DNA of 18,418 nt, from the IMG/VR virus record IMGVR_UViG_3300031884_000008. One strand, given 5' to 3'. How positions within the stretch are numbered: position 1 is the first letter of the stretch; each line of letters opens with the position of its first letter. Made by a program: the position numbers and the translations under genes. Under the pieces are notes generated by a model. The model was not told the origin of the DNA and ran no database searches. It worked only from the letters and a program-made list of their open reading frames with translations. Origin of the DNA: a virus. Its lineage: Duplodnaviria; Heunggongvirae; Uroviricota; Caudoviricetes. Positions 3,202-15,900 of this stretch are shown piece after piece.

Positions 3202-4179
3202 ATGTTTAATATTCTGTCAGTAATTCCGGGAAAAAAGAAGACTACCGGTAGTGGCTGGATTAGCTTTAATGCACCGTGCTGTCATCATCGCGGTCATAAA
3301 GCAGATAAACGTATGCGCGGCGGAATCAAGTTTATAACAGACGTTAACTGGTCGTTTCATTGCTTTAACTGCGATTACAAGTGCGGATTTACCTTAGGTA
3401 AACAAATTAGTAAGAATCTACGACAATTATTGCTTTGGTGCGGTGTCGGTGACAGTGAGATTACTAAATGGAATTTTGAGAGCCTTCAGCATCGAGATTT
3501 AGTAGACCTATATACGATAAAGAAAAATCTCAAGAAAGTAAGATTTAATGAGATACCGCTACCACAAAATGCTATAATGATTGATTCTGCCTGTCCTGAG
3601 CATAAACCTTTTATAGACTATCTTTCCACAAGAGGATTTCAACCAAACGATTATCCATTTTTAATCACTCCTAAAGATGAAGGTAGAAATGCTAATAGAA
3701 TTATCATTCCATATACTTTCAATAATAAAGTTGTCGGTCATATAAGCAGATATCTAGATGACAGATTTCCCAAATATATTAAGGAGCAACAACCCGGATT
3801 CGTATTTGGCTTCGACTTACAAAAACCAGAATGGGAAGTATGTATCGTTGTTGAGGGCATATTTGACGCACTCAGTATCAATGGCTGCGCACTAACTCAT
3901 GATACTATAAGCGACGAACAAGCAGAGGTTCTTCGTCGCCTTAATAAACGTATTATTGTAGTTCCTGATTTGGATAAGACAGGGCTAGCTATATGTGACC
4001 GAGCGCTAGATTTGGGTTTTCAGGTGAGTATACCAAATTGGGCCGAAGGAATAAAAGACACCAATGATGCTGTTAGAAAGTATGGAAGACTTCCTACTCT
4101 GCTAAGTATATTGCAAAGCGCAACTACTAGCAAAATCAAGCTTAAGATGCAACGGAGAACGCTTGACAAAAGAATATAA
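3202..4179 (+). CDS. gp61: DNA primase (T4 gp61-like, DnaG-type Toprim)
   Basis: N-terminal Zn finger (CCHHRGH...HCFNC), Toprim motifs VEGIFDA and VVPDLDKTG, and KDTNDAV; directly upstream of the helicase. Confidence 0.92.
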   Translation: MFNILSVIPGKKKTTGSGWISFNAPCCHHRGHKADKRMRGGIKFITDVNWSFHCFNCDYKCGFTLGKQISKNLRQLLLWCGVGDSEITKWNFESLQHRDLVDLYTIKKNLKKVRFNEIPLPQNAIMIDSACPEHKPFIDYLSTRGFQPNDYPFLITPKDEGRNANRIIIPYTFNNKVVGHISRYLDDRFPKYIKEQQPGFVFGFDLQKPEWEVCIVVEGIFDALSINGCALTHDTISDEQAEVLRRLNKRIIVVPDLDKTGLAICDRALDLGFQVSIPNWAEGIKDTNDAVRKYGRLPTLLSILQSATTSKIKLKMQRRTLDKRI

Positions 4180-5572
4180 CATAGACGTACAGACGCTCTT
4201 TCTACGTATGATGGTAACCAACGCCGAGTTATATACTCGCGTCATAAACATCATGAATCCAAATAATTTTGATAGGACGCTGAGAGCATCCGCAGAATTC
4301 TTGGTAGAACACGCTACCAAATATAATGTTATGCCGGATCCTATTCAGATCAAGGCTACGACTGGTGTTAGCATAGAACCTATACCAGAGCTTACTGATG
4401 GACACTATGATTGGTTTCTAGAAGAATTCGAATCATTCACTAAGAGACAAGAGCTTGAGCGAGCCATTCTTAAAGCAGCGGATATGCTAGAGAAGGGCGA
4501 CTTTAATCCAATTGAAAAATTAATAAAAGATGCTATTCAGATTTCATTGCAACGAGATATGGGTACAGACTACTTTGCTGATCCAAAAGAGCGACTAAAC
4601 AAATACTTCAATGCAGGTGGTCAAGTAAGCACAGGTTGGCCACAGCTTGATCGTGTCATGTATGGTGGCATGAGTCGAGGAGAGTTGAACATCTTTGCAG
4701 GTGGTTCGGGCTCGGGTAAATCATTGGTGATGATGAATCTGGCTCTAAACTGGCTACAGCAAGGGTTAAGCGGAGTATACATAACGCTAGAACTATCAGA
4801 AGAATTGACTTCGCTACGTACTGATGCCATGTTGACTAGCATGAGTACAAAAGATATTCGAAAGGATATGGATACTGCTGAGCTAAAAGTCAAGATGGTT
4901 GCTAGAAAGTCTGGTAAGTATCGTGTTAAGGGTCTTCCGGCACAGTCTAACGTAAATGATATTCGAAGCTATCTAAAAGAAGTTCAGATTCAGACTGGCA
5001 TCAAAGTAGATTTTGTGATGATCGATTATCTCGATCTAGTCATGCCAGTCTCCGTAAAAGTAAATCCTAATGATCAGTTTATCAAGGACAAGTATGTTTC
5101 AGAAGAACTACGTAATCTAGCTAAGGAATTAGGTGTTCTGATGGTTACGGCATCGCAGTTGAATCGTTCGGCAGTTGAAGAAATTGAGTTCGATCACTCA
5201 CACATTGCTGGTGGTATTTCAAAGATCAACACAGCAGACTATGTGTTTGGTATTTTCACTTCCAGGTCAATGCGTGAACGCGGAAAGTATCAAATTCAGT
5301 GTATGAAGTCTCGTAGTTCCACTGGAGTGGGTCAAAAGATCGACTTAGAATATAACATCGAAACCATGAGAATAACCGACGAAGATCCAGAAAATGATTA
5401 CAAACCACAACCGTCTGCTAATGACATTATCAGTAAAATAAAAACAACTAGCCAAGTTGGCTCAGTAGACGCAGCGGTACATGCAACTGTAGAAGCAGCA
5501 CCAAAGCACGTAGTTGCAGATGTCAAATCTGCACAATTAAAATCGTTGTTAAATTCTCTCAAGAAATCATAA
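4163..5572 (+). CDS. gp41: replicative DNA helicase (DnaB / T4 gp41-like, SF4)
   Basis: Walker A GGSGSGKS, Walker B MIDYLDL, TASQLNRS, INTADYVFGI and MKSRS arginine-finger region. TTG start with GGAG at 4154-4157. Confidence 0.95.
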   Translation: MTKEYNIDVQTLFLRMMVTNAELYTRVINIMNPNNFDRTLRASAEFLVEHATKYNVMPDPIQIKATTGVSIEPIPELTDGHYDWFLEEFESFTKRQELERAILKAADMLEKGDFNPIEKLIKDAIQISLQRDMGTDYFADPKERLNKYFNAGGQVSTGWPQLDRVMYGGMSRGELNIFAGGSGSGKSLVMMNLALNWLQQGLSGVYITLELSEELTSLRTDAMLTSMSTKDIRKDMDTAELKVKMVARKSGKYRVKGLPAQSNVNDIRSYLKEVQIQTGIKVDFVMIDYLDLVMPVSVKVNPNDQFIKDKYVSEELRNLAKELGVLMVTASQLNRSAVEEIEFDHSHIAGGISKINTADYVFGIFTSRSMRERGKYQIQCMKSRSSTGVGQKIDLEYNIETMRITDEDPENDYKPQPSANDIISKIKTTSQVGSVDAAVHATVEAAPKHVVADVKSAQLKSLLNSLKKS

Positions 5573-5575
5573 ATA
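5570..5575 (+). promoter_or_regulatory. putative late promoter (TAAATA) overlapping the helicase stop codon
   Basis: TAA of the helicase is the first half of TAAATA; AGGA at 5584-5587 and ATG 5598 follow. Confidence 0.55.
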
Positions 5576-5597: not shown

Positions 5598-5846
5598 ATG
5601 CAAAAGAAAACAAAAAGCCTTCTTGAGGAATTACAAGCATATGGTGAAAACCGTGATGTCAATCATATTATTGAGTCTCGGGCTTCCAATATTATTACCA
5701 GTGCTATCAATCTAATTGAATTGATGAATCGTAATTATTCTCCTGAAAAAGCAGAATTTCTTGAAAAGAAATTGCTTAGCGCTATCAAAGGTAAAGATCA
5801 AGCAAGATTTTCGAAGTCCATAAGGAGGAATCATGAAGATAAATGA
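5598..5846 (+). CDS. hypothetical helical protein, 82 aa
   Basis: ATG with AGGA upstream; amphipathic charged sequence; overlaps next gene by 14 nt. Confidence 0.75.
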   Translation: MQKKTKSLLEELQAYGENRDVNHIIESRASNIITSAINLIELMNRNYSPEKAEFLEKKLLSAIKGKDQARFSKSIRRNHEDK

Positions 5847-7170
5847 GTTTAATTCACCTAAGCAAGTAGATGAGGGTCTATTGAGCAACGTATTTGGAGA
5901 TTACGGAGCATCTACTATTACGAATACACTCGGTAAGTACGCTGAGCCAATGATGAAACGGGCACAACAGAATTTAACCCAGAAAAACTTCATCAATAGC
6001 TTTCTTAAGAGTGCATCAACGGCTTTGGCTAATGTAGCTGCTCCTGCCACTAGGGTATCAGCAGCACCAGCTGCCCCGACAGGGTCTGCGGGTCCAACAG
6101 CAGCATCTTCTGCCCCGACAGGGTCTGCGGGTCCAACAGCAGCATCTTCTGCCCCGACTGCTGCAACTGCAACTACACAAAATACAGCATCCACAGACCC
6201 TTATGAAAACCTTAAAGGACAAGTACGTAGTATTCAACCTACACCAAATGCAAAGCCTCTTCCGGCTAATATGGTTGCAAGCTTGCAAGGAGATATGCAA
6301 AAATTAGCTAAGGGTGATAAGGAAAGTGGCGCCTTTGCTGCTAATAAGATTTTAAAATTTGCAAATGCTGGATACGATGTCAGTAAGCTAGCACCAGCAT
6401 GGACAGCAAGCAGCAAGGCAGGTGAAAGGTTCTTGACCCAGAGTGTATATCGCGCTATAAGTAAAATGCTTAAGGAACACGGACTGGTTTGGGCTAATCT
6501 AGGTCTTCGTATTAGGTTGACTGAAAGTGTTAAAGGATCTGGAGTCTTTATAAGCACTTGCAAGCCAGTTTCCGTCGTAGTCTCACCGTATGATAGATTA
6601 AATTACGTACTTGAAAGTATCATATCAGAATATGATCCTACTTTGGCTAGAACTACCGGCAATGCACCAAAACCAACTGCGCCTAAAGCGGTTAATACTC
6701 CTAGATTCGGCACAAAGCCTGCGTCATCGGCCGCCGCACCAAAGACGGTAGCGCCACAGGCCGCCGCACCAAAGACGGTAGCGCCACAGGCCGCCGCACC
6801 AAAGACGGCGCCACCACAACCCGCTGCCCCTAAAGGAAAACCTTCTCAGATATTGAATAGCTGGTTTTATAACTATATGCACGGAGTAAACATTAATGAT
6901 AACCAACAAAAGCTAATCAGTGATTTACTTAGCCAAGTAGATGCTACGTATAGCAAAGACAAGGGCAATGAAGCACTCCAAAAATTGGCATTATTAGCGT
7001 TCAAACTTACAGCCGCAGCTAAACCTGAATTAATAAAAAATACCCCATCTACATCAGGGTCACTCTCTACTTCTTCGGAACAAATAAAGGCCTCGTTGGA
7101 CTCACTAAAAAACAAAAACCCAGCTGAATATAAAAAAATTATAGCAGACATTAATCAAACAGCACAATGA
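5833..7170 (+). CDS. Ala/Pro/Thr-rich multidomain protein, candidate internal head protein
   Basis: Strong SD AAGGAGG; starts MKINEF...VDEG; two low-complexity linkers built from tandem repeats. Confidence 0.7.
   Translation: MKINEFNSPKQVDEGLLSNVFGDYGASTITNTLGKYAEPMMKRAQQNLTQKNFINSFLKSASTALANVAAPATRVSAAPAAPTGSAGPTAASSAPTGSAGPTAASSAPTAATATTQNTASTDPYENLKGQVRSIQPTPNAKPLPANMVASLQGDMQKLAKGDKESGAFAANKILKFANAGYDVSKLAPAWTASSKAGERFLTQSVYRAISKMLKEHGLVWANLGLRIRLTESVKGSGVFISTCKPVSVVVSPYDRLNYVLESIISEYDPTLARTTGNAPKPTAPKAVNTPRFGTKPASSAAAPKTVAPQAAAPKTVAPQAAAPKTAPPQPAAPKGKPSQILNSWFYNYMHGVNINDNQQKLISDLLSQVDATYSKDKGNEALQKLALLAFKLTAAAKPELIKNTPSTSGSLSTSSEQIKASLDSLKNKNPAEYKKIIADINQTAQ
6071..6158 (+). repeat. in-frame 39-bp tandem repeat, about 2.3 perfect copies
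   Basis: CTGCCCCGACAGGGTCTGCGGGTCCAACAGCAGCATCTT starts at 6071 and 6110, with a partial copy at 6149; encodes APTGSAGPTAASS. Confidence 0.95.
6729..6808 (+). repeat. in-frame 30-bp tandem repeat, about 2.7 perfect copies
   Basis: GGCCGCCGCACCAAAGACGGTAGCGCCACA starts at 6729 and 6759, with a partial copy at 6789; encodes AAAPKTVAPQ. Confidence 0.95.
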
Positions 7171-8312
7171 GTGACCTCAGGGCCTTAATAGATAAACTGG
7201 AATCCATCAACACCGTAGTTGTTGAAGGCAAAGGTCATTTGGATCATCCTGAAGATTTAGTTTTTTTAGGGGATGAGGAAGGTGCAAAACGCGCAATATC
7301 TGCAATAGAAGCAACTGTAAATCAACCAAACTCTATAACTATCAAATGGGACGGGTATCCTGCGCTTATATTCGGTCGAGGATCTGATGGAAAATTCTCC
7401 ATCATGGATAAGCACATGTTTAATAAAAAGGACGGCACTGGTAGAGCAGTATACAGTCCTGAACAATTTATGGAATATGATCGGGCCAGAGGAGTAGACA
7501 GAGGAAATCTATACCATCTGATTGGTACTATTTGGTCTGGTTTGGAAAAAGATGATCGCGGTGGAAATGGTTACTACTGGGGTGATCTTTTATTTAGCAG
7601 TCCACTTAAGGATGAAAATGGGGTATTCAAGTTTAGAGCCAATCCTAATGGAATTGCATATACAGTAGATGTAAACAGCGACGTTGGTAAACTACTAGCA
7701 GGAAAAGCCGCTGGTATTGCTGTCCACCAGTTTATACCGGCTCAGTCGGCGTCAACTGATGAGGCTGTTTCATTGAACGGATCATTGGGTAATCTACAAA
7801 ATGCTTCTAATGTAGCTATAGTACCTAGTAAGATGCCGATTACACCTAAATTAAAAATGCCAGCTAGACTCAAGAACGTAGCAGAAAGAGAACTACAGCA
7901 GTATGGACCATCAATCAAAGATTTGATGAATACTGCCCCTCAGGCTAGAAATACATTCAATCAACTTTTTACAGTTTACATCAACAAGAAAATTGTGTCA
8001 GGTAGTCTTACTAATTTAATAAAAGACTTTTTAGAGTATGTAAAAGCTAGACCTATGTCCGACGCCATGAAGCAAAAAATTCTAGAACATCTAGAAGTAA
8101 ACAAAGAAGGCCTAGTAGGTGCCTTCAAAGTTTGGATATCATTGTACAATCTTAAAATGAATGTAGTGAAACAATTAGACGCATCAGCTACACATAGTCC
8201 CGTAAAGGGATATTTGCAGGATGGATCACAGACACATGAGGGTTTCGTCGCACAAGGTCTTAAGTTTGTTGATCGTATGGGATTTTCTCGTCAAAATCTT
8301 CAAGGCCGATAA
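7167..8312 (+). CDS. conserved phage protein with ATP-dependent ligase-like nucleotidyltransferase motifs (recalled resemblance to DUF6267-type proteins)
   Basis: TIKWDG (motif I KxDG, Lys at 7344-7346), WGDLLF (motif III-like), HEGFV (motif IV), LKFVDRMGFS (motif V-like); N-terminal GHLDHPED. No C-terminal OB domain. Confidence 0.6.
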   Translation: MSDLRALIDKLESINTVVVEGKGHLDHPEDLVFLGDEEGAKRAISAIEATVNQPNSITIKWDGYPALIFGRGSDGKFSIMDKHMFNKKDGTGRAVYSPEQFMEYDRARGVDRGNLYHLIGTIWSGLEKDDRGGNGYYWGDLLFSSPLKDENGVFKFRANPNGIAYTVDVNSDVGKLLAGKAAGIAVHQFIPAQSASTDEAVSLNGSLGNLQNASNVAIVPSKMPITPKLKMPARLKNVAERELQQYGPSIKDLMNTAPQARNTFNQLFTVYINKKIVSGSLTNLIKDFLEYVKARPMSDAMKQKILEHLEVNKEGLVGAFKVWISLYNLKMNVVKQLDASATHSPVKGYLQDGSQTHEGFVAQGLKFVDRMGFSRQNLQGR

Positions 8313-8341
8313 CCCAAAACCGACTTTTTTGTTGCCAGGCA

Positions 8342-8347
8342 TAAATA
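8342..8347 (+). promoter_or_regulatory. putative late promoter (TAAATA)
   Basis: Intergenic TAAATA upstream of AGGA (8381-8384) and ATG 8394. Confidence 0.6.
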
Positions 8348-8393
8348 TTAATATGGAACAGCAGGTTCCAAATATTAATAAGGATCCATCAAG

Positions 8394-8777
8394 ATGGCAC
8401 AATTTACAAAGACACATGGTGATTTTCAACCAGTACTACACATTGACTCACCAGCATATACAACTGGCGCTCTTAACGCTGTAACTTCAGGCGTAGCTGT
8501 ACAACCACAGGGCCCAAAGCTTGACTACTTCACTTCTACTGCTACTGGCCACTTGACTGGCGCCCAAGTTCTAACCATTGTTCAGACTCTTGAGCAACTT
8601 GCAACAGTACACATCTATCAGTTCACAACTGGTGGCTCAAACGACACCTTCGCTGCTGCTCTTTACCCAGCATCAGCTTGGACTGCTTCTGCAATCGACA
8701 CTGCTCTAACCGCAGCTGGCGTAACTGGTACAACTACTGCAACCGGCGCAACTTTCGTTGCTGGTTCAGACCTCTAA
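8394..8777 (+). CDS. small Ala/Thr-rich protein, probable abundant virion component
   Basis: Flanked by its own late motif and terminator; codons visibly skewed to GCT/ACT/TTC/GAC; almost no charged residues. Confidence 0.7.
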   Translation: MAQFTKTHGDFQPVLHIDSPAYTTGALNAVTSGVAVQPQGPKLDYFTSTATGHLTGAQVLTIVQTLEQLATVHIYQFTTGGSNDTFAAALYPASAWTASAIDTALTAAGVTGTTTATGATFVAGSDL

Positions 8778-8802
8778 TATAAAAAGTTATTATTAACTAA
8801 CG

Positions 8803-8835
8803 AAGCCCGGAAATAATATTATTTCCGGGCTTTTT
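8803..8835 (+). terminator. Rho-independent terminator
   Basis: AAGCCCGGAAATAAT|ATTATTTCCGGGCTT (8803-8832) is a perfect inverted repeat ending in a T5 run (8831-8835), 25 nt after the 8777 stop. Confidence 0.85.
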
Positions 8836-8842
8836 GTTGCTC

Positions 8843-8848
8843 TAAATA
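8843..8848 (+). promoter_or_regulatory. putative late promoter (TAAATA)
   Basis: Directly after the terminator and 5 nt before ATG 8854. Confidence 0.6.
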
Positions 8849-8853
8849 ACACT

Positions 8854-9294
8854 ATGCATAGAATTCGGTGCTATACGTTATTTGACATCACCCAAACTGG
8901 AGTGATGAATCGTTCTAGACCGAATGTGGATGACATTGACGGTTGGCTACGTAAACGTAATACACAATGCAATTTCGATACAGTACTTCAGATTATATCT
9001 TTAAGATCGCAGCCTGAGGTAACTAAATTACCTACTAAAATAGAAATGAGTGAATCTGAATTTGAAAAATTTGGGTTTGCATATGAGATGCAAGATAAAT
9101 TTAGTTACTGCTGGAGTTTCGAGTTTGAGATTCAACACACTAGCGTATTTGAAAATGGAATTGTACCGTTGGGATCATTGTACAGCGATTGTGACGGAGT
9201 ACCGATGATAGTTTGCGGAGAACAGAATGTTCCCACTTCATCCTTTTTAAATACTACAGTAGAGTTAAAAAATATCTATTTTGAGATAATGTAA
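8854..9294 (+). CDS. hypothetical protein, 146 aa
   Basis: ATG-started ORF with globular alpha/beta composition; no recognised motif. Confidence 0.75.
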   Translation: MHRIRCYTLFDITQTGVMNRSRPNVDDIDGWLRKRNTQCNFDTVLQIISLRSQPEVTKLPTKIEMSESEFEKFGFAYEMQDKFSYCWSFEFEIQHTSVFENGIVPLGSLYSDCDGVPMIVCGEQNVPTSSFLNTTVELKNIYFEIM

Positions 9295-9295
9295 T

Positions 9296-9784
9296 ATGAA
9301 AAATGTGGTAAAACTAGCTAAATTTTTTGACGAAGAATTGAATTCTAACCTCAGTGAAGTGTTAGTTACTAAATACCAATTTGGAGAATATGGTCTATTT
9401 GGTAAATATTTAGTTAAACTCACACCTGCAGGTTGGTATAAAGTAGTTGTATTAAAAAATAAAGACGCCCATGAGTTTACTACACTAAGAAATGCTGTTA
9501 CCTGGTGTACATTGCAGCATGCTGATTTGGGAAAACAAGCAAGAAGGTTACAACAACTAGATGCAAAACTTAGTAGCTTGCAAGTAGAGATTACTCTACA
9601 TAAAAATATGAGCAGAACATCAACCAATGTTTACACTAAACAAATGTATAGAATGAAGTTACAGGAAGACACCTTTCAGAAAAAACAAGTAGTCAATGAA
9701 GTCAATTCTTTCATAAATAGTTCTATGATGATTCAGGCTCGTAAGTTTGACAAGTCAAAAGAACGTAAATTTACATACCGATGA
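9296..9784 (+). CDS. hypothetical protein with coiled-coil C-terminal half, 162 aa
   Basis: Starts 1 nt after the previous stop; ARRLQQLDAKLSSLQVEITLH heptad-like segment. Confidence 0.72.
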   Translation: MKNVVKLAKFFDEELNSNLSEVLVTKYQFGEYGLFGKYLVKLTPAGWYKVVVLKNKDAHEFTTLRNAVTWCTLQHADLGKQARRLQQLDAKLSSLQVEITLHKNMSRTSTNVYTKQMYRMKLQEDTFQKKQVVNEVNSFINSSMMIQARKFDKSKERKFTYR

Positions 9785-9790
9785 TAAATA
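9785..9790 (+). promoter_or_regulatory. putative late promoter (TAAATA)
   Basis: TAAATA immediately after the 9784 stop; AGGA at 9802-9805 and ATG 9816 follow. Confidence 0.6.
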
Positions 9791-9815
9791 TTACAATCAA
9801 CAGGAAGATTAACTT

Positions 9816-10523
9816 ATGAAACTTAACGATTTAGACAAGAATAACGTTGCTGAAAGAGCACTTAAGGAATCCTTTTCTATGAATTTTGACGTATCGAACT
9901 TAGACCGCGCAAAAACCCGTGCTATGTTAAAGAAGGTTACTGGTCTGATCAACGAATCAAGACGATCACCTAATTTTCATAAAGCACAGAACAATCCAAC
10001 TTATTTGAAGTTGAAGTTTATGGAGCAGGCTCTAACTCAGCATTTACCTTATGCTAAGTCTCCTCGCATCGTATTTGAAAATGAAGAAGTAGAGAAGTCA
10101 CAGGTCATTCTTGCTGCACAAGATATGGTTGACACTGTACAAAAGTACTATGAAGATGTCAATGATATGCTTGTTAAGGAACTTCCGGCACTGGTCGATT
10201 CGATTCAATCAGAAATTGGTGTCAACGAAAGCACACAATTCAATCAGCAAGTGTCCGAAGCACTTACTACTCTCAATAGCACTCTACAAGAAACAAAGGC
10301 TGCGCTTCAAGGTGCGCTAGGCACACTCACTGGTCAAGGCGGCGAAGATGCATTTGCAACCAACGAACCTGAGCTTGGAGCTGACATGGGTGCAGAGTTA
10401 GGAGCCGACTTAGGTGGCGAACTTGGTGACGAAGAAGATTTAGATATGGATCTCTCTGAACCAAAGTCTGATGAGGAAGAACTTCCACCTAGATTCAGCG
10501 GTGCAGGCCGCCCAAAGCGATAA
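9816..10523 (+). CDS. acidic helical protein, candidate prohead core/scaffold protein
   Basis: Long helical central region, very acidic tail with ELGADMGAELGADLGGELGD microrepeats, basic terminus GRPKR, several (L/I/V/F)xE sites. Confidence 0.65.
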   Translation: MKLNDLDKNNVAERALKESFSMNFDVSNLDRAKTRAMLKKVTGLINESRRSPNFHKAQNNPTYLKLKFMEQALTQHLPYAKSPRIVFENEEVEKSQVILAAQDMVDTVQKYYEDVNDMLVKELPALVDSIQSEIGVNESTQFNQQVSEALTTLNSTLQETKAALQGALGTLTGQGGEDAFATNEPELGADMGAELGADLGGELGDEEDLDMDLSEPKSDEEELPPRFSGAGRPKR

Positions 10524-10527
10524 TTTA

Positions 10528-10884
10528 ATGTTTCTTTTTGAATTCGATCAGGATAGCGCACAAGTCGCAAAAATTGTTGCGCTAACCAATCAATTGAAAG
10601 ATGATGTAGAAAACGGCGAAGTTGATAGTGACAATTTTACCGTTGATGAATTGCTGGATTACTTTCAACAATATGACGTTATTCTAGATGTTAACGATTT
10701 ATACAACATGATTAAGGTCGCGCCGCTCAAAACACTTGTTAAGAACATTCAAGGTGATAAAGTAGTCTTTAAAGGACAAGAAGATGATTCTGCTGAGACA
10801 AAAGCACCAGAAGATGAAAACAAAAAGATAGTATCTAAAATGGCCAATTCTGCGCTATCTAATCTTAAGTCAGCCAATAAATGA
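10528..10884 (+). CDS. acidic hypothetical protein, 118 aa
   Basis: ATG 10528 (4 nt after the previous stop) is preferred to 10471, which would overlap the upstream gene; starts MFLFEF. Confidence 0.72.
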   Translation: MFLFEFDQDSAQVAKIVALTNQLKDDVENGEVDSDNFTVDELLDYFQQYDVILDVNDLYNMIKVAPLKTLVKNIQGDKVVFKGQEDDSAETKAPEDENKKIVSKMANSALSNLKSANK

Positions 10885-10931: not shown

Positions 10932-11618
10932 ATGGCTATAACTAATAAATTCCCTTATACAGACCTACAAAGAGTAAATGTTGACGGATCAAGAAGATAC
11001 GTAACTCCTGATGGTAACAAACTACCTTCTGTAACGACTATACTCGATGCTACAAAATCAGAAGATTCGAAAAAAGCACTTCAAAATTGGCGAAATCGTG
11101 TAGGTCATGCCAAAGCTCAGGAAATCACCACTGAGGCAGCGGGTAGAGGTACTCGTATGCACAAGTGGATCGAAAACTACATTAAGTTAGATGCTACTGG
11201 TGATCCAGGTACTAATCCATACAGCACACAAAGTCATGCTATGGCACAGAGCATTATTTCTCAGGGACTAGTCAATTGCACTGAATATTGGGGAACCGAA
11301 GTAGGTTTGTATTTTCCTGAAATCTATGCAGGCACGACAGATTTGGTCGGAGTTCATGCAGGTGATGAAGCGGTTATGGACCACAAACAAACAAATAAAC
11401 CTAAAAAGCGCGAATGGATTGACGACTATTTCGTGCAAACCACTGCATATGCTAATGCTCATAACGAAGTTTGGGGAACCAAAATTCGAAAGGGTGTTAT
11501 TTTTATGTGTTCTGCTGACGTGATCTATCAAGAATTCATAATTGAAGGAAATGAGTTTGATCGTTATGCTGACTTGTGGTGGAAACGAGTAGAACAGTAC
11601 TACACTAAATTCCTTTAG
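10932..11618 (+). CDS. PD-(D/E)XK exonuclease (RecB/Cas4/YqaJ-like phage nuclease)
   Basis: LPSVTTIL, GRGTRMHKWIE, TEVGLY, AGTTDL, VMDHKQT: the usual phage PD-(D/E)XK motif series. Confidence 0.85.
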   Translation: MAITNKFPYTDLQRVNVDGSRRYVTPDGNKLPSVTTILDATKSEDSKKALQNWRNRVGHAKAQEITTEAAGRGTRMHKWIENYIKLDATGDPGTNPYSTQSHAMAQSIISQGLVNCTEYWGTEVGLYFPEIYAGTTDLVGVHAGDEAVMDHKQTNKPKKREWIDDYFVQTTAYANAHNEVWGTKIRKGVIFMCSADVIYQEFIIEGNEFDRYADLWWKRVEQYYTKFL

Positions 11619-13778: not shown

Positions 13779-13804
13779 CATCTCCTATTTTTTTAACCTT
13801 ATGA

Positions 13805-13810
13805 TAAATA
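13805..13810 (+). promoter_or_regulatory. putative late promoter (TAAATA)
   Basis: Intergenic TAAATA followed by a 79-nt leader, SD AAGGAG and ATG 13890. Confidence 0.6.
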
Positions 13811-15492: not shown

Positions 15493-15900
15493 TTATTTTT
15501 CAAGCGATCTTAGTTTTTCATTAACGATATCAATATTGACAGTAGAAAATAAACCAGGATGTAATGGTTTAGGGTACTGTCCTTCTTTAACCCAAGCATA
15601 TCCCACGTGTTCGTCGTTCAACACCGGAATAAATTCTTCTGTAACTTCACAAAAAAATGTATTATATGTGAATGAGTTATTCACAAATTTTTGAATTGGA
15701 ATGAGCTTCCATAATGGATTAAACATTCCTATTTCTTCAGTACATTCTCGTTGGATCCCTTCATACAGGGTTTCAGTTTTTTCTATTTTTCCGCCCGGTA
15801 TACTCCATGTAGGATTTTTTTGGTCGGCTCTCAATAGATACAGGTATCTATTAGTAGAGGTGCTGTAGAAAAACACACCTGCTGCTTGAATAATTGTCAT
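15493..15900 (-). CDS. Nudix hydrolase
   Basis: Complete Nudix box GKIEKTETLYEGIQRECTEEIGM (Gx5Ex7REUxEExGU), preceded by WSIPG. Confidence 0.92.
   Translation of the reverse strand: MTIIQAAGVFFYSTSTNRYLYLLRADQKNPTWSIPGGKIEKTETLYEGIQRECTEEIGMFNPLWKLIPIQKFVNNSFTYNTFFCEVTEEFIPVLNDEHVGYAWVKEGQYPKPLHPGLFSTVNIDIVNEKLRSLEK

Follow-up and report, generated by a model that had tools for sequence, protein, structure and literature searches.

What would a phage that already encodes a DNA ligase and an RNA ligase do with a third protein of predicted ligase fold? This question is raised by the gene at positions 7167-8312 (+ strand) of an 18,418-nucleotide stretch of tailed phage DNA (Caudoviricetes; IMG/VR record IMGVR_UViG_3300031884_000008), which was analysed over its whole length and is referred to here as the window. 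An earlier note, made from the letters of the sequence, had described the product as an orphan ligase-like nucleotidyltransferase. We found that the label of orphan does not hold. The protein falls within Pfam DUF6267 (PF19782), with 127.1 bits (E 1.4e-36; gathering score, 27 bits) and a match that covers positions 3-373 of the 376 in the profile; a word-indexed collection contains 1,297 homologues, the family comprises 861 representative clusters, and it is core in cyanomyoviruses. Pfam scans matched the DUF6267 hidden Markov model to all 73 of the homologues that were aligned. Structural modelling suggests that DUF6267 is a very diverged, previously unrecognised branch of the polynucleotide ligase superfamily and that it is probably active; its best reading, for which we see slightly better than even chances, is that of a nick-sealing repair ligase, probably acting on DNA.

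The fold was predicted with AlphaFold2 (AF2) from the 73-homologue alignment (predicted local distance difference test score, pLDDT, 94; predicted template modelling score, pTM, 0.89). In the model, motif I forms a strand-turn-strand, and motifs III, IIIa, IV, and V lie on beta strands, as they do in ligases. VIA-align, an exhaustive structural comparison with 48,161 PDB chains, placed ligases only at ranks 1-24, with Z scores of 4.9-7.5 and 142-202 residues aligned. NgrRnl (5cot) was the best match (Z 7.5, 187 residues aligned), and the other matches included TbREL1 (6.6), Pmar-Lig (6.3), Sulfolobus DNA ligase (6.0), T4 Rnl1 (5.9), T4 DNA ligase (6dt1, 5.8), T4 Rnl2 (5.5), and African swine fever virus (ASFV) ligase (6imk, 5.4), as well as Trl1, LigIII, LigIV, T7 ligase, and Chlorella virus ligase. 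Foldseek against clusters of the AlphaFold database (AFDB) recovered the family and then, with a probability of 0.99 (E 7.9e-4), an "RNA ligase domain-containing protein"; against BFVD it matched an RNA ligase from an Agrobacterium phage, with a probability of 0.90 (E 6.9e-3); the top matches among Swiss-Prot models were all weak and were LigA proteins (E 0.06, probability 0.15). Taken together, the uniform list of matches, the order and strand context of the motifs, and the invariance of key residues make membership well evidenced, and we consider it highly probable, on the basis of the model, that DUF6267 belongs to the covalent nucleotidyltransferase (polynucleotide ligase) superfamily.

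The elements of the gene that carry this assignment are as follows, with conservation counted over 252 near-full-length homologues, down to about 27% identity.

7167-8312, + strand: DUF6267 gene (381 amino acids), a predicted ligase-type covalent nucleotidyltransferase without an OB domain, from Pfam PF19782, the AF2 model, and VIA-align.
7245-7256, + strand: His27-Pro-Glu29-Asp30, family-specific, at the start of the N-terminal helix (28-52); H27 in 248, E29 in 246, and D30 in 247 of 252.
7344-7355, + strand: motif I, K60-W-D62-G63 (context ITIKWDG), on the strand-turn-strand 58-60 and 66-71 of the model; K, D, and G each in 251 of 252, the rest being a gap.
7578-7592, + strand: motif III, W-G-D140-L-L (residues 138-142), on strand 135-143; D140 in 252 of 252.
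7656-7670, + strand: motif IIIa, strand 164-168, with Y165 as the predicted base-stacking aromatic residue; Y165 in 252 of 252.
7854-8192, + strand: basic helical module (residues 230-342) of five helices (233-341) between motifs IIIa and IV in the AF2 model; contains K330 (251 of 252).
8235-8249, + strand: motif IV, H-E358-G359-F-V (residues 357-361), on strand 359-362; E358 and G359 in 252 of 252.
8259-8288, + strand: motif V, L-K366-F-V-D-R370-M-G-F-S (residues 365-374), on strand 365-367; K366 and R370 each in 251 of 252.

Even at such low identities, 251 or 252 of the 252 homologues retain each of K60, D62, G63, D140, Y165, K330, E358, G359, K366, and R370, so that the motifs are more than a chance resemblance. 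In the alignment of 73 diverse homologues, H27, K60, D62, G63, G70, D140, Y165, K330, E358, G359, and K366 are invariant columns. The model and the position in motif I make K60 (codon 7344-7346) the predicted AMP-accepting lysine. The family-specific His-x-Glu-Asp has no counterpart aligned in the Rnl1-like and gp30-like ligase profiles, and it may bind metal or position the leaving group. The helical module carries a net charge of +7 with an isoelectric point (pI) of 9.7, as would be expected of a nucleic-acid clamp; the family median charge is +3, and the module is shorter in the aligned cyanophage orthologues. No OB domain matched in Pfam, and the model has a single helix after motif V; since the protein ends 15 residues past Lys366, there is no room for such a domain. 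The claims of the earlier note on these points have stood: KWDG, WGDLL, HEGFV, and LKFVDRMGFS are all found in the translation in the order of ligase motifs, the long insertion before motif IV is helical, and the proposed ligase-type covalent nucleotidyltransferase without OB agrees with the fold, with the order of the motifs, and with a predicted catalytic lysine that does not vary in the family. The same note had proposed AlphaFold and Foldseek as a check, and here the outcome was divided: the AF2 fold, the RNA ligase matches in AFDB and BFVD, and the ligases ranked by VIA-align bore the assignment out, whereas Foldseek against PDB did not reach significance.

The strongest clue to the substrate on which such an enzyme would act comes from the domains to which its relatives are joined. 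Among the best 150 representatives, about 70 are fusions. In 39 of the 150, a domain designated A2 lies next to DUF6267, mostly immediately N-terminal to it. The model of A2 (pLDDT 88) has the palm and thumb of a family-X DNA polymerase (Pol X): Foldseek matched Pol lambda, beta, and mu at E 1e-5 with a probability of 1.0 (249 matches at E <=0.001), and the ten best VIA-align matches were all of family X, including Pol beta (Z 11.4, 161 residues aligned, root-mean-square deviation 2.8), Thermus Pol X (10.7), and, over the whole length of A2, ASFV Pol X (10.0). Terminal uridylyltransferases, CCA-adding enzymes, and CD-NTases reached Z scores of at most 7.5, over the catalytic half only. A minimal Pol X that adjoins a ligase is also the arrangement of ASFV base-excision repair, and it suggests that gaps are filled and the nicks then sealed, most likely on DNA. 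A second partner, found in about 26 of the 150, is an adenylyltransferase with a HIGH motif (GxFxPxHxGH or GRMNPPTLGH), whose nearest solved relatives are archaeal/NadM-type NMNAT and PPAT (4e-8 to 1e-7). Rarer partners are ADP-ribosyltransferases (ART-PolyVal, ADPrib_exo_Tox), an Acb1-type 2H phosphoesterase, HAD phosphatases (NT5C, DUF2608), sigma-70 region 4, and Cu/Zn superoxide dismutase; P0101, a close relative (68% identical), is fused to an exoenzyme-family ADP-ribosyltransferase domain (PF03496). Multi-domain phage proteins commonly have diverse fusion partners, which need not act in one pathway (PMC5512222). Five relatives (P0201, P0237, P0238, P0252, and P0254) hold, in one polypeptide, three nucleotidyltransferase folds that are unrelated to one another: a mini Pol X, DUF6267, and the HIGH-motif adenylyltransferase, in that order.

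The genome around the gene already contains other ligases. A gp30-like ATP-dependent DNA ligase of 473 amino acids (PF01068, PF14743, and PF04679) is encoded at L003:1144-2565 (-), or G000:C1 ~43.7-45.2 kb, and a T4 Rnl1-like RNA ligase of 401 amino acids, with PF09511 (E 1.6e-33) and the Rnl1 C-terminal domain, at L006:1171-2376 (+), or G000:C1 ~227.1-228.3 kb, about 18 kb upstream of the DUF6267 gene. Because both are present, the DUF6267 protein would be an accessory third ligase in this phage and not the replicative one. T4 itself likewise keeps one DNA ligase and two RNA ligases, and DUF6267 would be such an extra enzyme family-wide. Two accounts were discarded: that the protein is this phage's missing DNA ligase, since a gp30-like ligase is present, and that DUF6267 and canonical ligases follow a strict either/or distribution, since they occur together in six of 13 other large DUF6267-bearing viral records. 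Their co-occurrence here and in those records also means that DUF6267 is not simply a replacement for gp30. No NAD+-dependent ligase was found in the 13 records.

The situation is different in cyanophages. A supplementary table published by Sullivan et al. in 2010 lists DUF6267 as T4-GC 71, which 16 of 16 cyanomyoviruses carry and which is missing from all ten other T4-like phages (PMC3037559). A tblastn search with the Syn9 orthologue returned 469 phage records, 456 of which are cyanophages, and the annotation is always "hypothetical". Reviews have noted that cyanomyoviruses have no gp30 homologue and have assumed that the host enzyme is borrowed (PMC2984593, PMC1079782). Neither PF01068 nor PF01653 ligases were found in four complete DUF6267-bearing genomes (P-TIM40, Syn9, S-SM1, and Melnitz), and DUF6267 may possibly be the only phage ligase in cyanophages. 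In Syn9, S-SM1, and P-TIM40, the gene lies between those for gp41 and gp61 and is followed by a gene for a HIGH-motif adenylyltransferase (in Syn9, gp183, then gp184 and gp185). This synteny is not universal, as the orthologue of S-N03 is not next to cytidylyltransferase or replication genes; in that cluster-C cyanophage, the 292-residue orthologue (L013:3001-3879) stands among many very small genes without assigned function. BFVD has an entry for S-PM2 (A0A0M6VVW4) in which DUF6267 and the cytidylyltransferase seem to form one protein of 591 amino acids, and the 2010 table lists two adjacent genes (103025-103603 and 103632-104804); the long protein may be a natural fusion or a re-annotation.

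According to the reading that we prefer, Lys60 would take AMP from ATP, or possibly from NAD+, and pass it to the 5'-phosphate at a nick in duplex nucleic acid, which would then be sealed, with the basic helical module standing in for the missing OB and DNA-binding domains. The family would perform the sealing step of gap-fill-and-seal repair, most probably on DNA, and the NMNAT/PPAT-type adenylyltransferase would be its second regular partner.

Several results weigh against this reading. None of the methods tried linked the family to ligases by sequence. A Pfam scan of the protein returned DUF6267 only, with no OB match; across the 73 members, PF01068 was not matched at E values up to 10, PF01653 was matched neither by the protein nor by its homologues, and PF09511 was touched by one member at E 0.15. 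The protein falls outside the RNA ligase families Rnl1 (PF09511) and Rnl2/Rnl5 (PF09414), and its accessory module is internal rather than a terminal domain. When Rnl1-like and gp30-like profiles were built for comparison by hhalign, the former aligned over the motif IV stretch EGFV only (E 0.034) and the latter over an irrelevant stretch (E 0.24), and no single ligase gave a significant alignment with the family profile. Searches of PDB chain sequences with the protein and with the 73-sequence profile gave chance matches only, to gp37 baseplate tube, GldL, and DotF. This failure of sequence searches is why the family is still a DUF. As for structure, the VIA-align Z scores are all below 8, a range that the tool grades as middling, and were obtained with a predicted model as query, while Foldseek against PDB had no match at E <=0.001 and mixed CorA and other helical proteins with RNA ligases. 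Motif V is atypical, with a single Lys and Arg370 in place of the usual K-x-K. No gene for a Pol X-like partner was found in this phage's genome, nor was the stand-alone cluster-2 adenylyltransferase gene that was looked for there; a 544-residue adenylyltransferase-like protein is encoded about 140 kb from the DUF6267 gene. The PF01068 ligase that accompanies DUF6267 in six of the 13 large records, including the only complete one (372 kb), is a further point on this side. Finally, the best structural matches are RNA ligases, among which the lack of an OB domain is typical.

This last point leads to the alternative that the protein is an RNA ligase, either an Rnl-type nick-sealing enzyme or one that repairs tRNA to counter host ribonuclease defences. 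NgrRnl, REL1, and T4 Rnl1 are among the top structural matches, the named AFDB and BFVD matches are RNA ligases, absence of OB is the rule in that group, and the sole stretch aligned between profiles is motif IV of Rnl1; the Acb1-family 2H phosphoesterase and the HAD phosphatases NT5C and DUF2608, to which some relatives are fused, are domain types of end healing. However, DNA and RNA ligases differ in Z by less than 2, so that the fold does not choose between them, and the commonest fusion partner has the palm and thumb of a family-X DNA polymerase and is not an enzyme of the CCA-adding or poly(A) type. A polynucleotide kinase P-loop was not seen in most fusions, and the genome already has a true Rnl1-like ligase. 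The idea of tRNA repair in the earlier note, drawn from Rnl1 and PrrC of T4, is weakened by that bona fide ligase, and the fusions favour DNA gap filling. We therefore regard an RNA ligase as rather unlikely, while holding it the leading alternative. A replicative DNA ligase that seals Okazaki fragments, as an unrecognisable substitute that has displaced gp30, would account for a gene that all 16 cyanomyoviruses share and that the other T4-like phages of the same table lack, for the four genomes without PF01068 and PF01653, and for the position between gp41 and gp61 in cyanophages. Against it stand the full gp30-like ligase of this phage, with nucleotidyltransferase and OB domains, and those of six of the 13 other large records, the complete 372-kb record included; moreover, the gene lies here behind a late-promoter-like element and not an early or middle one, the S-N03 orthologue is away from replication genes, and host LigA could serve cyanophages, as the reviews assume. 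This role appears very unlikely.

Equally improbable, in our estimate, is an enzyme of ligase fold that does not join polynucleotides at all: one that works with the NMNAT-like partner on NAD+ or an adenylylated small molecule, or that is injected to counter host defences by adenylylating a protein or DNA end. The repeated fusion or adjacency of an NMNAT/PPAT-type adenylyltransferase is consistent with such a role, as are the fusions to ADP-ribosyltransferases (ART-PolyVal, ADPrib_exo_Tox), Acb1, NT5C, and Cu/Zn superoxide dismutase, the cytidylyltransferases found in virions of S-SM1 and S-CREM2, and the invariant His-x-Glu-Asp and K330, which are without counterpart in classical ligases. To our knowledge, however, no member of the superfamily acts on anything but polynucleotide 5' ends, and nucleic acid is the substrate suggested by the Pol X fusions and by the basic nature of the helical module; the partners, whose variety is usual in multi-domain phage proteins, need not belong to one pathway (PMC5512222).

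A nick-sealing ligase of the kind that we favour would resemble several known systems without coinciding with any of them. The OB-less RNA ligases NgrRnl/Rnl5 (5cot), T4 Rnl2 (1s68, 2hvq), and TbREL1 (1xdn) have the same motif order and kinds of strand and likewise no C-terminal OB domain, but share no detectable sequence homology with DUF6267, whose accessory module lies inside the core, between IIIa and IV, rather than at the C-terminus as in Rnl2 or the N-terminus as in Rnl5. In addition, DUF6267 has K-x-x-x-R and not K-x-K in motif V, and its invariant His-x-Glu-Asp and K330 are extra. The combination of one polymerase and one ligase in the 39 Pol X fusions follows the same logic as ASFV Pol X with AsfvLIG and as bacterial LigD; however, the ligase domains of AsfvLIG and LigD have OB and match PF01068, whereas the DUF6267 protein does neither, and its gene stands alone in this window. 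The T4 gp30-type ligase shares the superfamily fold and the catalytic motifs, but adds to them a DNA-binding domain at the N-terminus and, at the C-terminus, an OB domain that carries motif VI, and profile comparison finds nothing between the two; as they also co-occur, they are not equivalents. In the literature searched, under DUF6267, the wording used for the cyanophage cytidylyltransferase, and recent cyanophage ligases, no description of the family was found, and broad surveys of phage NAD+/ADP-ribose systems and polyvalent proteins returned no passage on DUF6267 under ligase or nucleotidyltransferase terms. We found no description of this architecture, which lacks OB, holds a basic helical module inside the adenylyltransferase core, has extra invariant residues, and is regularly joined to Pol X or an NMNAT-type enzyme, and we regard it as a new architectural kind.

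Whether the protein is also carried inside the phage head is a separate matter, raised by the leader of the protein and by the transcription unit to which its gene belongs:

5568-5575, + strand: T4-type late-promoter-like CATAAATA, overlapping the end of the gp41 helicase gene, 22 nt upstream of the ATG at 5598.
5598-5846, + strand: first gene of the unit, an 82-amino-acid open reading frame (ORF) of a family annotated as virion structural protein (phrog_11854, E 4.8e-15).
5833-7170, + strand: gene for a low-complexity, Ala/Pro/Thr/Ser-rich, probably disordered protein of 445 amino acids; its stop overlaps the DUF6267 start (ATGA).
7167-7226, + strand: DUF6267 leader of 20 residues (helix 4-14, a flexible linker, and VVE20), a candidate propeptide.
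8340-8347, + strand: second late-promoter-like CATAAATA, downstream of the DUF6267 stop.

The earlier note had placed the gene in a late operon, coupled to a repeat-rich gene, and had pointed to a 20-residue leader ending VVVE|G just before GHLDHPED. The unit is indeed preceded by the late-promoter-like element at 5568-5575, the overlap is real, the upstream gene carries perfect or near-perfect tandem arrays at 6059-6158 (39 bp x2.6) and 6729-6808 (30 bp x2.7), and the leader, MSDLRALIDKLESINTVVVE, is followed by GKGHLDHPED, with pLDDT below 50 at residues 15-21. The low-complexity protein matched nothing in Pfam or PHROG, and its N-terminus, MKINEFNSPKQVDE (pattern MKINEF...VDE), resembles a T4 capsid-targeting leader. 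In ten of 14 close relatives, the DUF6267 start is met or overlapped by the end of a similar low-complexity gene that bears a leader, and the 82-amino-acid gene takes that place in two others; because such pairing is found in most close relatives, the two proteins may work together. Homologues of the 82-amino-acid ORF lie directly upstream of the DUF6267 genes in L029 and L031. ATAAATA occurs five times in the window, against 6.6 expected, always on the + strand and four times ahead of an ORF start; as the total is not above chance, only the positions are suggestive. Further ATAAATA elements are at 9713-9719, 9784-9790, and 13804-13810 (+), just upstream of the ORFs at 9816 and 13890.

In T4, the prohead protease gp21 cuts after the Glu of MKTYQEFIAE, and [LI]-x-Glu is its cleavage motif. 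The propeptide that gp21 removes has 10-20 residues, and its role has been described (PMC5694885). The leader of the DUF6267 protein, like those cut by gp21 from T4 IPI-III and Alt, is short and ends in [LIV]-x-Glu, so that by its letters it resembles such a propeptide. E20 is kept in 240 of 252 homologues, and of 193 non-redundant N-termini of the family, 182 have [LIVMF]-x-Glu at a distance of 3-11 residues ahead of the invariant His. Many family leaders (MKIFEFIQTLTE, MRFNEIINE, and MKFDEFNNILRE), including those of the types MKIFEF..LTE and MKFDEF..LRE, resemble the IPII/IPIII N-terminus MKTYQEFIAE as read from the T4 record. A gp21-type prohead protease gene is present in the genome at G000:C1 129871-130317. 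Ten ORFs of the genome have N-termini like the T4 capsid-targeting sequence (e.g., MRVTEFIAEG, MKIQELLNES, and MKIIELIES) and are candidate internal head proteins; three adjoin the prohead protease gene (G000:C1 124161-124775, 124742-125335, and 125903-126592 (-)), and others are at G000:C1 86207-88474, 26142-26696, and 1303-2718.

The translational coupling to a low-complexity protein, the late-promoter-like element, and the leader ending in a gp21-type motif would be compatible with loading into the head and injection. Other observations weigh against packaging. The leader of this phage's own protein has only the terminal V-V-E in common with the T4 pattern. Pol X fusions, too, retain the [LIV]-x-Glu motif where the two domains meet, and there it could mark inter-domain cleavage or have simply a structural role. 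Virion studies of S-SM1, S-PM2, and Syn9 gave no proteomic evidence for T4-GC 71 and did give it for the neighbouring cytidylyltransferase; likewise, the 52 virion proteins listed for S-CREM2 include the cytidylyltransferase but not the DUF6267 orthologue (58908-59765). Because the aligned cyanophage orthologues have no leader, these proteomes do not test the leader-bearing clade. On sequence resemblance, we consider packaging of the DUF6267 protein in the head of this phage possible, though doubtful. A more far-reaching account would join all of these elements: a new class of ligase, loaded into the head through its propeptide, freed by a gp21-type protease and injected, would mend nicks and gaps acquired while drifting in sunlit seawater before phage genes are expressed; in relatives, a mini Pol X would accompany it, as would an NMNAT-like enzyme that could supply or regenerate its nucleotide cofactor, perhaps NAD+; and its leaderless form would be the missing ligase of cyanomyoviruses. 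As a whole, this account seems to us unlikely.

The absence of gp30 from cyanophages has been noted in reviews for about 20 years (PMC1079782, PMC2984593), and a core gene with a predicted ligase fold and invariant residues makes the question directly testable. The window adds a caution, in that DUF6267 co-exists here with canonical DNA and RNA ligases and so is not a mere substitute. Its joining to a minimal Pol X and an NMNAT-type enzyme suggests a compact, phage-specific gap-fill-and-seal module, possibly supplied with its cofactor in an unusual way. Should the leader prove to be a true capsid-targeting signal, the virion would carry a nucleic-acid repair enzyme inside it; the window also sets leader-bearing proteins apart from those of cyanophages, which have no leader and are absent from virions. 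Small OB-less ligases are also of practical interest as reagents for molecular biology.

The source record has 258,859 bp at an estimated completeness of 73%, so that the phage, marine and uncultured, is a T4-like jumbo phage. In the window, the DUF6267 gene sits between the gp41 gene and an exonuclease gene, in the following surroundings:

896-1180, + strand: MazG-like pyrophosphohydrolase gene.
1412-1909, + strand: peptide deformylase.
3202-4179, + strand: gp61-type primase.
4163-5572, + strand: gp41-type helicase.
5598-10884, + strand: block of genes without assigned function.
8394-8777, + strand: ORF forming the next unit after the DUF6267 gene, its start marked by the CATAAATA at 8340-8347.
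10932-11618, + strand: exonuclease gene.
Also on the + strand: tail-fibre-like gene.
15493-15900, - strand: Nudix hydrolase.
Also on the - strand: T4 gp15 homologue.

The ORF at 9816-10523 belongs to a PHROG annotated as virion protein, which, like the annotation of the 82-amino-acid first gene of the unit, speaks for packaging. The Nudix hydrolase and the MazG-like gene flank the region and, with the distant adenylyltransferase-like gene, amount to several auxiliary enzymes related to nucleotides or NAD. After the ORF at 8394-8777, a strong terminator-like hairpin at 8802-8833 (14 pairs, then a T run) closes the short unit.

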